A stretch of 64,000 bases of DNA from the NCBI RefSeq assembly GCF_006345805.1, contig NC_043015.1:53320001-53384000 (forward strand). The letters are read 5' to 3'. Under the pieces are notes generated by a model that worked only from the letters and a program-made list of their open reading frames with translations, ran no database searches and was not told the origin of the DNA. A program made the translations under genes and the position numbers. Origin of the DNA: Octopus sinensis (Eukaryota). This document shows, in pieces, positions 4,664 to 51,793 of the stretch; within the stretch, counting starts at the first letter, position 1, and every line of letters starts with the position of its first letter.

Positions 4664-4797
4664 TTATATATATAATAACAATTTAGGAATGGCCTGAACA
4701 GGCCATTCGTCCACCAGAAAGAGCAGCCATAACTCCAACCGCCAAGTAGTGTAATTCGGAAATAAGGTGAAAATTTAAAAACATTTACCCTAATTCA

Positions 4798-4898
4798 TCT
4801 TTTATACGATGCATCGTTTCGGTGTCTTTAATGATAGACCAGCTTAATTAAATTAAATTAAGCTAGTCTACCATAGGTCACACTTCATCAGTAAAAGA
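4798..4898 (-). ncRNA. Type I hammerhead ribozyme
   Basis: Reverse complement of the 5750-5850 motif. Confidence 0.88.
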
Positions 4899-5268
4899 AA
4901 CCTGGGGAGAGACGGATATACACGAGGCTACTGTATCAATGCCTCGGAATATCTGTCTTAAAATTTTCAAGACCAACGCATTCGCGCCAAACTTATCGGC
5001 AGCAATATAACTGCGATTCAATCTCAGAATTAGTCAGAAAATTATCAATTAATCAATTTAGGGTAGCAAAAAATTCAGTAAAAATTTGTCGCTACCAGCG
5101 GCCTAATGGAAAGAGAAAATAGTCAAAGACTAAATATGTATAAATATAACAATTTAGGAATGGCCTGAACAGGCCATTCGTCCACCAGAAAGAGCAGCCA
5201 TAACTCCAACCGCCAAGTAGTGTAATTCGGAAATAAGGTGAAAATTTAAAAACATTTACCCTAATTCA

Positions 5269-5368
5269 TCTTTTATACGATGCATCGTTTCGGTGTCTTT
5301 AATGATAGACCAGCTTAATTAATTAAATTAAGCTAGTCTACCATAGGTCACACTTCATCAGTAAAAGA
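5269..5368 (-). ncRNA. Type I hammerhead ribozyme
   Basis: Second tandem copy, reverse complement of the 5750-5850 motif. Confidence 0.88.
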
Positions 5369-5749
5369 AACCTGGAGAGACGGATATACACGAGGCTACT
5401 GTATCAATGCCTCGGGAATATCTGTCTTAAAATTTTCGGTTGGAGTTATGGCTGCTCTTTCTGGTGGACGAATGGCCTGTTCAGGCCATTCCTAAATTGT
5501 TATATTTAACATTTTAGTCTTTGACTATTTTCTCTTTTCCATTAGGCGCTGGTAGCGACAATTTTTACTGAATTTTTTGCTACCCTAAATTGATTAATTG
5601 ATAATTTTCTGACTAATTCTGAGATTGAATCGGCAGTTTATATTTGCTGCCGATAAGTTTGGCGCGAATGCGTTGGTCTTGAAAATTTTAAGACAGTATT
5701 TCCCGAGGCATTGATACAGTAGCCTCGTGTATATCCGTCTCTCCAGGTT

Positions 5750-5850
5750 TCTTTTACTGATGAAGTGTGACCTATGGTAGACTAGCTTAATTTAATTTAA
5801 TTAAGCTGGTCTATCATTAAAGACACCGAAACGATGCATCGTATAAAAGA
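5750..5850 (+). ncRNA. Type I hammerhead ribozyme
   Basis: Stem I TCTTTTA(5750-56)/TAAAAGA(5844-50); CTGATGA 5757-63; stem II GTGT/ACAC extended by a long hairpin; GAAAC 5828-32; palindromic stem III ACGATGCATCGT; GUA cleavage triplet 5841-43. Confidence 0.9.
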
Positions 5851-6231
5851 TGAATTAGGGTAATGTTTTTAAATTTTCACCTTATTTCCGAATTACACTA
5901 CTTGGCGGTTGGAGTTATGGCTGCTCTTTCTGGTGGACGAATGGCCTGTTCAGGCCATTCCTAAATTGTTATATTTATACATATTTAGTCTTTGACTATT
6001 TTCTTTTTCCATTAGGCCGCTGGTAGCGACAAATTTTTACTGAATTTTTTGCTACCCTAAATTGATTAATATATATATATATATATATATATTACGGAGA
6101 TGTACTTGCAATGCAAGTGACCTGATCTGAGCTCGTGTGCTGGAACGAAGACAATTGCAGCGTGGAAGGTGTTTATAAGCCATTTAAGAAGCACACAAAA
6201 TCCCTTAGATTCACTTCAACATTTAAATTGA

Positions 6232-6360: not shown

Positions 6361-6899
6361 TGTAGGAGAAAAATATTTTTTCTAAAAAAAAATTTCTTTT
6401 TTCGAAAAAAATTTTATCAATGGCCAGCATATTAAAAAATACCTTTAAAGCATATATATATATAAACAATTCATAAATAAGGGCAAACGAAAAAATTTCA
6501 AATGCCAAATATGCCGAAAAATTGGACATATTGTCCATTAACCATATAATTTTTTCAAATACGCACGCTACTCGAAAAAAGGCCGACAGAAATTTCTAAA
6601 AAATTTCTAAAAAATTAATCTTTGCTTCTTCCATGGGTATGAGTAAGTATCTCATTTATTTATTTTGCCACATGTATCACTGACGAAGGGAGGGCTGTTT
6701 ATGAGCTAACCCTGAAATCGATTCGATATGGTAATAATGGAATTTTTTAGAAATTTCTGTCGACCTTTTTTCGAGTAGCGTGCGTATTGTGAAAAAATTA
6801 TATGGTTAATGGACAATATGTCCAATTTTTCGGCATATTTGGCATTTGAAATTTTTTCGTTTGCCCTTATTTATGAATTGTTTATATATATATATGCTT
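6361..6899. mobile_element. Inverted-repeat HHR element (second family)
   Basis: ~158 bp near-perfect inverted arms 6448-6605 / 6741-6899, with an HHR in the spacer. Confidence 0.75.
6675..6733 (+). ncRNA. Type I hammerhead ribozyme
   Basis: TATCA-CTGACGA-AGGG...CCCT-GAAATCG att CGAT-A-TGGTA; AUA cleavage triplet. Confidence 0.8.
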
Positions 6900-48965: not shown

Positions 48966-49506
48966 TTATACATACATATACATACACACGAAAATGCACA
49001 CATGTAAGTCGAAACAATTTGCTGGCCTTTTTGGGTTTTTATATAATTGTTAATGTTATATGATATTATTTTATATAATATCCATAATATATTATGTAAT
49101 ATTGTAATATTATAATATAATAAATAATTGGATTGTTAATAGTACCTCTCTACTTAATTTATATTTGTAATTGCATTACACCCATATTTATATGGTATTC
49201 TACTGACCTACCAGTGAACTAGATGTTTAATATACCGGCTTGAAGGAACACTTTTCCTCAGTTTGTTACTATACATACATACATACACACTCACACACAC
49301 ATACACACACACTCACACACGCATATACATATATACAAGGGTATGAATAAAATACATGATAATAAGATTTGAGTACGGCACATGCTTCGATCCGTTCTGG
49401 GTTTCTTCGGGTACATAAATAATAAAAATAAAAATAATAAATAATAATTATAAAGTCTTACTGGAGATTCGCTTTTCTGTATCGCTTAATGTCCGTCAAC
49501 TTTGGG

Positions 49507-49573
<67 letters not shown>

Positions 49574-49619
49574 TGTATGTATGTATGTATGTATGTATGT
49601 ATGTATAAACATAAATAAC

Positions 49620-49833
49620 GGCGGCGAGCTGGCAGAATTATTAGCACGCCGGGCGAAATTCTTAGCGGTATTCGTCTGCCGTTAAGTTCTGAGTTCAAAT
49701 CCCACCGAGGTCGACTTTGCCTTCATCCTTTCGGAGTCGGTAAATTAAGTAGCAGTTGCGTACTGGGGTCGATCCAATCGACTGCCACCCCCGCTCAAAA
49801 ATTTTCAGGCCTTGTGCCTAGAGTGGAAAAGAA
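49620..49833 (+). mobile_element. SINE family A
   Basis: GGCGGCGAGCTGGCAGAA...GGCCTTGTGCCTAGAG. Confidence 0.85.
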
Positions 49834-49986
49834 CTTTGGGATATATATATATATATATATATATATCAACAATCAAGGAACGGCCATAATAGGCCATTCA
49901 CCCACTAGAAATAACAGCCAAGCTTCAACCGCAAATAAAAGTCAATTCCGTAAACAGGAGAAAATTTAAAAACATTTACCCTGTAA

Positions 49987-50091
49987 TTTCTTATACGGTT
50001 CACCGTTTCATCTGCTGTTTAATGGTAAACTAACCTGATTAAATTAAATCAAGCCAATCTTCCATAGGCCCTCAGATTCTTCAGTAAGAAA
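49987..50091 (-). ncRNA. Type I hammerhead ribozyme
   Basis: Reverse complement of 50679-50783. Confidence 0.9.
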
Positions 50092-50678
50092 TAGCCACAA
50101 GTCGGAACAGATATTTTCACGAGGCATTTCCGACCCTGCCAAGGTAATATCTGACCTAAAATTTTCAAATCATCGCACTCGCGCCAAATTTATCGGCAGC
50201 AAATAAATATAAGCCGTCGATTCCATTACGGAATTAACCAGAAAATTCATAATTAATCAATATAGGGTGGCAAAAAAAATTACAGGGTAATTTACAGGGT
50301 AAATGTTTTTAAAATTTTCTCCTGTTTACGGAATTGACTTTTATTTGCGGTTGAAGCTTTGGCTGTTATTTCTAGTGGGTGAATGGCCTATTATGGCCGT
50401 TCCTTGATTGTTGATGTTGAACTTAAAAATGGTCTATGACTATTTAATTTTTTCCCACTAGGCCGCTGGTGGCAAAAGAATTCTACAGAATTTTTTTTGC
50501 CACCCTATATTGATTAATTATGAATTTTCTGGTTAATTCCGTAATGGAATCGACGGCTTATATTTATTTGCTGCCGATAAATTTGGCGCGAGTGCGATGA
50601 TTTGAAAATTTTAGGTCAGATATTACCTTGGCAGGGTCGGAAATGCCTCGTGAAAATATCTGTTCCGACTTGTGGCTA

Positions 50679-50783
50679 TTTCTTACTGAAGAATCTGAGG
50701 GCCTATGGAAGATTGGCTTGATTTAATTTAATCAGGTTAGTTTACCATTAAACAGCAGATGAAACGGTGAACCGTATAAGAAA
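50679..50783 (+). ncRNA. Type I hammerhead ribozyme
   Basis: TTTCTTA-CTGAAGA-ATCTG...CAGAT-GAAACGG tgaa CCGTA-TAAGAAA. Confidence 0.92.
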
Positions 50784-51171
50784 TTACAGGGTAAATGTTT
50801 TTTAAAATTTTCTCCTGTTTACGGAATTGACTTTTATTTGCGGTTGAAGCTTTGGCTGTTATTTCTAGTGGGTGAATGGCCTATTATGGCCGTTCCTTGA
50901 TTGTTGATGTTGAACTTAAAAATGGTCTATGACTATTTAATTTTTTCCCACTAGGCCGCTGGTGGCAAAAGAATTCTACAGAATTTTTTTTGCCACCCTA
51001 TATTGATTAATTATGAATTTTCTGGTTAATTCCGTAATGGAATCGACGGCTTATATTTATTTGCTGCCGATAAATTTGGCGCGAGTGCGATGATTTGAAA
51101 ATTTTAGGTCAGATATTACCTTGGCAGGGTCGGAAATGCCTCGTGAAAATATCTGTTCCGACTTGTGGCTA

Positions 51172-51276
51172 TTTCTTACTGAAGAATCTGAGGGCCTATG
51201 GAAGATTGGCTTGATTTAATTTAATCAGGTTAGTTTACCATTAAACAGCAGATGAAACGGTGAACCGTATAAGAAA
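51172..51276 (+). ncRNA. Type I hammerhead ribozyme
   Basis: Tandem copy of 50679-50783. Confidence 0.92.
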
Positions 51277-51510
51277 TTACAGGGTAAATGTTTTTTAAAT
51301 TTCTCTGTTTACGGAATTGACTTTTATTTGCGGTTGAAGCTTGGCTGTTATTTCTAGTGGGTGTGAATGGCCTATTATGGCCGTTCCTTGATTGTTGATG
51401 TTGAACTTAAAAATGGTCTATGACTATTTAATTTTTTCCCACTAGGCCGCTGGTGGCAAAAGAATTCTACAGAATTTTTTTTGCCACCTATATTGATTAT
51501 TATATATATA

Positions 51511-51549
<39 letters not shown>

Positions 51550-51562
51550 GTATATATGTAAC

Positions 51563-51793
51563 GGCGGTGAGCTGGCAGAATCGTTACCGCTCAGGACAAA
51601 GTGCTTGGCGGTATTTCGTCTGCTGTTACGTTACGTTCTGAATTCAAATTACACCGAAGTCGAATATGCCTCTCATCCTTTCGAGGGCAATTAAATAATT
51701 ACCAATTACGCACAGGGGTCGATTTAATCGACTTAATCCCTTTGTCTGTCCTCAATCGTCCCCTCTATGTTTAGCCCCCTGTGAGCAATAAAG

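Follow-up and report, generated by a model that had tools for sequence, protein, structure and literature searches.

Two divergent arms with two fixed outer ends in a young hammerhead-bearing repeat of Octopus sinensis, probably written by Penelope-type double priming

Anatomy of the insertion and its predicted ribozyme

The window analysed here, a 64,000-nt stretch of Octopus sinensis DNA, contains an insertion built of two head-to-head arms of a 493-nt repeat unit and flanked on both sides by (AT)n tracts (Table 1). Within the window, the tandem array at 50292-51503 amounts to 2.5 copies that are 98% alike. Unit position 1 was set at the base directly after GUA (50777). Unit-to-unit identity is 96.7-100%, with small indels making up most of the differences, and the inverted arm matches the unit at 100% over positions 206-493 and at 97.7% over positions 1-132. 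No open reading frame of 220 aa or more was found in the insertion (49865-51503). Overall, these data confirmed the observation made in a sequence-only reading of the same DNA and supported its interpretation in part. Specifically, ribozyme-sense strands do diverge from a central junction; the insertion is young, in that its three ribozyme copies share a variant whose exact 29-mer is present just four times in the genome, three of these being here; and more than two units were copied, from a template continuous across more than two units. The right-hand end, previously placed at 51499, lies at about 51501-51503.

The arms meet at a junction where five nucleotides, AAATT (50277-50281), belong to both, and the start of the direct arm is for this reason given as unit 5-10, that is, 4-9 nt past the predicted cut. 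A templated duplication of unit 8-18 follows (50280-50290 and 50292-50302). The array had been read as starting near 50281, about 8 nt past the ribozyme site, with a short duplicated word. Indeed, TACAGGGTAA begins at 50281, which is unit position 9 and 8 nt past the predicted cut, and repeats at 50293; the duplicated word measures 10-11 nt, and only the arm start needed the refinement given above. A start just past the predicted cut was seen for the direct arm and not for the inverted arm, which begins at unit 206, far from that point. The outer end of the left arm is a fixed site A (unit 130-132), whose final AT is common to the target, and that of the right arm a fixed site B (unit ~235-238). 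Two very abundant SINE-like repeats, ~73-75% related, lie beyond the (AT)n tracts at 49617-49830 and 51560-51790, and AACTTTGGGATATATAT, found at 49498 and 49832, is the likely target duplication of the left one.

Table 1. Features of the two-armed insertion (positions within the window)
Feature	Position	Strand	Basis or detail
(AT)n target tract, left	49841..49864	.	sequence and repeat search
Left (inverted) arm, 417 nt	49865..50281	-	unit 206-493, then 1-132
Hammerhead copy 1, type I; predicted cut between 49994/49993	49986..50092	-	alignment position and fold
Head-to-head junction	50277..50302	.	AAATT overlap, then templated duplication
Right (direct) arm, ~2.47 units	50277..51503	+	unit 5-10 to 493, full unit, then 1-238
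Hammerhead copy 2, type I; predicted cut after 50776	50678..50784	+	sequence, fold, comparison of copies
Site A element, internal copy	50874..50908	+	hairpin, CCTTGATTG motif (unit 119-127), end point unit 130-132
Site B element, internal copy	50961..51014	+	hairpin, CCTATATTG motif (unit 221-229), end point unit ~235-238
Hammerhead copy 3, type I; predicted cut after 51269	51171..51277	+	alignment position
(AT)n target tract, right	51504..51557	.	sequence and repeat search

Each unit carries the parts of a type I hammerhead in order: stem I (ATTTCTTA/TAAGAAAT), CUGAAGA, a long stem II, GAAA, stem III (CGG-UGAA-CCG) and GUA. Complete motifs occur twice in succession in the direct arm and once in the inverted arm. 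Stem II is unusually long, with 68 nt separating the halves of the core, and an Rfam scan of the window at gathering scores returned no matches. When the unit was opened at the predicted cut, its fold formed all three hammerhead stems (z = -6.0); the 131-nt hammerhead region by itself gave z = -3.8, with a minimum-energy fold that lacks the hammerhead closure of stems I and III. Compensating paired changes were seen in stems I, II and III among the fetched copies. At this locus the loop is a non-palindromic TGAA on a 4-bp stem, and the family majority has TGCA; a palindromic loop 3 and dimer folding of hammerheads are described in passages of PMC4209133.

By its structure the element is a non-LTR retrozyme with predicted ribozyme activity. 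It consists of tandem non-coding units that each hold a type I hammerhead, and it forms a dispersed multi-copy family of dimers to multimers that encodes no protein of its own. No RT/GIY-YIG reading frame lies in the insertion or extends the arms at 139 loci, which sets it apart from an autonomous Penelope-like element (PLE). Plant-type LTR retrozymes are defined by a type III hammerhead in LTRs, PBS/PPT and a 4-bp target-site duplication (TSD), whereas here the hammerhead is type I, the units are tandem and no 4-bp TSD is readable. Searching four sequencing runs guessed to be RNA with two units gave 47-66 short contigs in three runs and 2 in the fourth; such assembled contigs show no strand, ends or circles, and tandem-repeat contigs do not separate circular RNA from read-through transcript. 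Window position 6680 (+) holds another hammerhead-like motif, whose stem II is short and which has no relation to the retrozyme unit, and similar motifs, some of them in inverted pairs, occur in L059, L066, L150 and L185.

Fixed outer ends across two families

Matches to the unit numbered 260 and were confined to 39 of the 972 candidate regions scored; exact ends occur genome-wide 447 times at unit 132 (A) and 782 times at unit 238 (B). We fetched 139 loci, 39 by unit match, 60 anchored on A and 40 anchored on B. The B-anchored loci have no exact A match nearby, and anchored loci were taken in coordinate order on C1 and C2. Ends were tallied by hand from arm maps together with a reading of short second arms. 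Among the 113 two-armed loci with both ends readable, 112 paired A with B, one was A+A and none was B+B, the remainder of the 139 being single-armed (23) or not assignable (3). The A+A exception in the 493-nt family is L123 (G000:C2:~131.00 Mb). The A+B pairing was found in all 28 loci of the set that was not picked by its ends; loci anchored on A had B as their free end in 50 of 51 cases, those anchored on B had A in 34 of 34, and either end may lie on the left side of an insertion. Since the 260 matches fall in so few regions and the two-armed layout recurs at more than 100 loci, the structure of the locus is not due to chance. Across the family it is the outer ends that stay fixed, at unit ~132 and ~238, and not the central junction.

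A misassembly, with collapsed or chimeric long reads yielding the inverted repeat, has a negligible chance of explaining these data. Contigs from four DNA-like sequencing runs at the locus are all short and none crosses the whole insertion, and inter-unit indel noise suggests imperfect polishing. Against this stand the two different fixed arm ends, the locus-specific junctions and the locus-private variants common to both arms in more than 100 loci of two families. At L031:3452-6451 and L074:1252-6992 the entire two-armed insertion is doubled with the same junction, either by local duplication or as an assembly artefact. At L032, from 5825 onward, the arm is interrupted at a TA by a DNA-transposon-like terminal repeat, which we take to resemble that of Tc1/mariner, and the second arm is out of view.

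For finer comparisons we used 96 clean pairs, after setting aside the duplicate copy in L031 and ten adjacent arm pairs of which one arm was complex or cut off; the complex pairs were later classed by hand in the 139-locus tally. In the clean pairs 94 of 96 A ends and all 96 B ends have ATATAT no more than 14 nt away (190/192), and the median (AT)n run is 22-23 nt on each side. An AT-rich/(TA)n target with no readable target-site duplication, and an inverted 5'-truncated copy with a tail at one end only, as seen in 112 of the 113 readable two-armed loci, are both what is expected of Penelope-mobilised DNA. Being symmetric, the (AT)n tracts offer no basis for a choice of A over B, and we infer that the asymmetry stems from the RNA-protein complex or from the order of events.

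The tail between A and B measures 106 nt. A hairpin followed by CCUNNAUUG precedes each of the two start sites, and the distance from CCUNNAUUG to the end point differs by a few nucleotides between A and B. In both families the word CCTNNATTG occurs exactly twice per unit, a short way upstream of each end and in the sense orientation alone; this motif, like CCUNNAUUG, was noticed post hoc. As a candidate end motif, TTGATT-N4-AT was exact in the first family and failed in the second, leaving the hairpin and CCTNNATTG instead.

The second family is represented at window 4677-6070 by a two-armed A+B insertion with a 473-nt unit, 72-76% identical to the 493-nt unit, and it ends at sites homologous to A and B. 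Genome-wide it has at least 136 exact A ends and at least 117 exact B ends. Its fetched loci comprise 11 A+B insertions, one with a truncated arm and five single-armed; by coordinates, 29 were A+B, none A+A and one B+B among the first 100 matches listed for each kind of end. The B+B exception is at G000:C5:61685327-61686536. A stretch at L245:11-305 that matches unit 2-113 and 169-238 at 72-76% probably represents a third related family.

Inner ends, template and a proposed mechanism

The sequence-only reading had a cDNA stopping at the 5' end generated by the hammerhead. In its general form, this explanation has a single cDNA reach the ribozyme-made RNA end, which would then set the inversion junction. 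Arm starts at -4 to +12 of the predicted cut number 16 of 192 against 3.4% expected, a 2.4-fold excess (p=0.001) for an interval picked after inspection of the data; it is the fullest of 29 bins, the runner-up holding 13 starts. The direct arm at our locus falls there, and in L107 and L111 both arms begin at unit 5-6. However, 176 of 192 arm starts lie elsewhere, as do 82 of 96 loci (14 have a start near the predicted cut). First ribozyme sites gave 8 stops and 144 passes and later sites 6 and 135 (14 and 279 in total), so that arms read through the site in ~95% of encounters. Moreover, the inverted arm at our locus starts at 206, and passages of PMC11167929 report PLE insertion in vitro that does not need hammerhead cleavage. 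Plotted across copies, breakpoints thus show a minor excess at the site and no family rule. As a general rule the explanation already fails, and we regard it as very unlikely. More than 90% of arm starts are unrelated to the ribozyme, which accounts for at most about half to two-thirds of the near-site junctions. The excess suggests that some templates begin at the predicted cut, and the direct arm at our locus may have started from such a 5' end, with a chance slightly better than even on the excess alone. We propose that the ribozyme-made 5' end is a stop for only a few percent of arms.

The two arms of a locus carry one haplotype. They differ at 100 of 19,171 sites (0.52%) within loci, against 2.8% between loci, in the 77 of 96 pairs kept after omission of arms longer than 3.3 kb and of pairs with fewer than 60 common sites; at our locus the difference is 0 of 353 sites. 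Arm lengths are correlated (rho 0.46, or 0.36 without the symmetric loci). Both arms reach the same inner position in 18 of 96 pairs (permutation mean 2.4), and among 72 end-anchored loci the B arm is longer than the A arm by 106 +/- 15 nt in 17, where permutation gives a mean of 2.5. At the junctions, overlaps of 1-7 nt, read from BLAST ends and therefore including chance extension, occur in 52 of 96 pairs and insertions in 27, several of them templated from nearby, a pattern that we take to be microhomology-mediated end joining. In L078:2100-2193 and L110:5306-5377 the junction fill is ~70-90 nt of reiterated AAAAATTT from unit 23-35, which suggests repeated slippage during end joining.

A shared haplotype and symmetric junctions, many of which lie on short palindromes, could also arise by fold-back. 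Here a target-primed arm would prime itself at a palindrome, the second arm would be a DNA copy of the first, and an endonuclease would resolve the product at the other fixed site, which would explain the one-of-each ends as well. The scheme resembles the self-priming model in passages of PMC3846280 and, for the tail, the 'EN-mediated resolution' described in passages of PMC8557442. However, fold-back requires the shorter arm to lie inside the longer one. Arm pairs are not nested in 34 of 96 cases, which therefore cannot be fold-back copies, and the nested share (62 pairs) is close to random pairing (67.5 +/- 3.9), the non-nested share being no lower than random. In addition, reverse transcription starts at both tail boundaries on RNA in vitro, as passages of PMC11167929 report. 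Fold-back may apply to the symmetric fifth of events; as an account of the family we consider it quite unlikely.

Several features bear on the template. In the end-anchored loci 49 of 144 arms exceed one unit, and arms reach at least 17 units (L049). Read-through of the ribozyme site is equal at first and later sites, L159 and L167 carry 19-25 fixed locus-wide private differences, in L050 and L067 variants alternate strictly with a two-unit period across five to six units, as a dimeric template would produce, and in 16 of the 18 symmetric loci both arms are shorter than one unit. The long arms, equal read-through, private variants, alternation and short symmetric arms together favour a circular template. 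However, a non-majority base common to at least two units was seen in 19 of the 34 loci that have three or more full units (from a list of 21 loci, less two end artefacts), which speaks against a pure monomer rolling circle for all arrays. In both arms of L052, L053 and L055 the variant unit adjoins the junction, an arrangement in keeping with a linear multi-unit transcript or with inter-arm conversion at a later time. Both circular and linear multi-unit templates are likely in use.

The same shared variants, together with blocks of adjacent units in L041 and L044 and the whole-insertion duplicates in L031 and L074, would also be in keeping with satellite-like growth, where single units insert and arrays expand in place by unequal crossover or slippage, as suggested in the Discussion of bioRxiv 10.64898/2026.07.22.740005. 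Such growth leaves the fixed one-of-each ends unexplained, and it sits poorly with hundreds of dispersed young two-armed loci with precise ends, with arms that are often both multi-unit and length-correlated, and with 2.5 + 0.85 units at our locus that hold no inter-arm substitution. We judge it highly improbable.

Our preferred reading, which we hold to be probable, is that this young non-coding 493-nt hammerhead insertion had its two arms written by a Penelope-type enzyme that primed from both ends of one DNA cut. A dimeric RT/GIY-YIG enzyme would bind the two hairpin-CCUNNAUUG copies on the RNA and cut both strands of a symmetric (AT)n target, whose two free 3' ends would each prime one cDNA, one per element. 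Both cDNAs would extend toward the RNA 5' side over a template unbroken across the ribozyme site, which may be a monomer or dimer circle in some events and an uncleaved multi-unit transcript in others, and would then be joined by microhomology-mediated end joining. In about a fifth of events both cDNAs would stop at one template point, as expected with two enzymes on one RNA. The Penelope-type integration proposed earlier is thus upheld by its footprint; the 5' inversion, however, is better read as a second, separately primed arm than as a flipped 5' piece.

Some data speak against double priming in this form. No autonomous element with the ends of the 493-nt unit was found among the 139 loci and 50 Neptune-type loci; passages of PMC11167929 report that the choice of start site did not differ between strands in vitro, which by itself does not predict one-of-each pairing; L123 and the B+B locus of the second family are homotypic; and the units that share a non-majority base are not predicted by a single monomer circle. 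On the best reading, the known one-sided PLE tail is here a near-obligate rule. Tentatively, and with more doubt than confidence, we extend this to Penelope integration at large as obligately asymmetric double priming, where one dimer would serve one RNA held by its two hairpin-CCUNNAUUG copies, one for each end of the DNA cut, and the two RTs would travel in convoy, lap after lap, round a small ribozyme-made RNA circle, with their products joined afterwards. If true, such convoy priming would account together for retrozyme arrays and for the inverted copy and one-sided tail of PLEs.

Relation to Penelope-like elements and other known systems

No PLE sequence extends an arm at any of the 139 retrozyme loci, and no pLTR matching the 493-nt unit was found in 50 loci of one Neptune-type group. 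Pfam searches of nine nearby open reading frames gave domains in three, all generic RT/endonuclease. Other PLE-like RT fragments near retrozymes fall into two groups (L160:4735-6300 (-), L164:3222-4709 (+), L140 and L146), presumably Naiad-like and Poseidon-like by motif. A young autonomous PLE family at L149:4317-6308 (-) and L240-L247, with copies 98-100% identical and frames up to 784 aa, is assigned as Neptune-type by its CX4CxxC motif, which passages of PMC8557442 tie to Neptune/Nematis. This family has a (TA)n target and a ~40-nt tail at one end only, and tail and no-tail ends pair in all three loci where both are visible. Its hammerhead core looks degenerate, and its pLTR and hammerhead are unlike the 493-nt unit.

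Animal non-LTR retrozymes are non-coding tandem units with one type I hammerhead each (Cervera and de la Pena 2020, PMC7229834, in passages). The element described here shares with them low GC, dispersed dimers to multimers and a proposed use of PLE enzymes (passages of PMC7229834; Li, Clavereau and Pollet 2026, bioRxiv 10.64898/2026.07.22.740005). Its unit is 493 nt, against ~300 bp, or 350-390 in mussel, in the same passages of PMC7229834, and its predicted hammerhead has an unusually long stem II and scores below the Rfam gathering level. Divergent arms with a pair of fixed ends are not described in passages of these two sources, where 'inverted' is absent from PMC7229834 and appears once in the preprint, and 'tail' is absent from the preprint. 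More broadly, fixed ends of the one-of-each kind were not described for retrozymes in any paper found, with most subscription papers and supplements outside the scope of the search.

Endonuclease-bearing PLEs carry an inverted truncated copy, often a one-end tail, and a (TA)n bias (passages of PMC8557442 and PMC3846280). Our insertions resemble them in their head-to-head inverted arms, variable inner truncation, one-end tail, microsatellite target and a hammerhead upstream of the end points, and differ in having no ORF, a tail of 106 nt, arms of at least 17 units and pairing in 112 of 113 loci. The non-nested arms argue against the self-priming model, as given in passages of PMC3846280, in at least a third of events. 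The nearest biochemical parallel is Poseidon PAc (Frangieh et al. 2024, PMC11167929, in passages), which cuts both strands in AT-rich DNA in vitro and extends them, starts reverse transcription at two internal sites that bound the tail and lie downstream of the hammerhead, dispenses with ribozyme cleavage and is a predicted dimer. Here, too, two internal starts downstream of the hammerhead would bound the tail, as read from insertion ends. Single-event pairing, inverted arms, non-autonomous RNAs and multi-unit copying are not treated in the passages of PMC11167929.

The origin of PLE inverted copies and one-sided tails and the copying of retrozymes into DNA are stated to be open in passages of PMC8557442, PMC11167929 and bioRxiv 10.64898/2026.07.22.740005. 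With hundreds of insertions, a family this short and young makes these questions of mechanism countable. The counts imply that each event uses both start sites once and draws on a single template lineage, that fold-back is not required and that ribozyme cleavage plays a minor part, the junction at the cut site being a minor effect. They also point to two short RNA elements as targets for mutation in an existing in vitro PLE assay.

In L1 twin priming, two target ends prime two cDNAs and microhomology joining yields a 5' inversion; the first primer sits on the poly(A) end, while the second happens to anneal immediately 5' of the cDNA made from the first. In contrast, retrozyme insertions lack poly(A), both of their start points are internal and fixed, and their arms cover overlapping template sequence. 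Set against these systems, the retrozyme class, the PLE link and the one-sided tail are already in print, and what is added here is the near-obligate pairing, the coupling of the stops, a start element present twice per unit and the exclusion of fold-back for a third of events.
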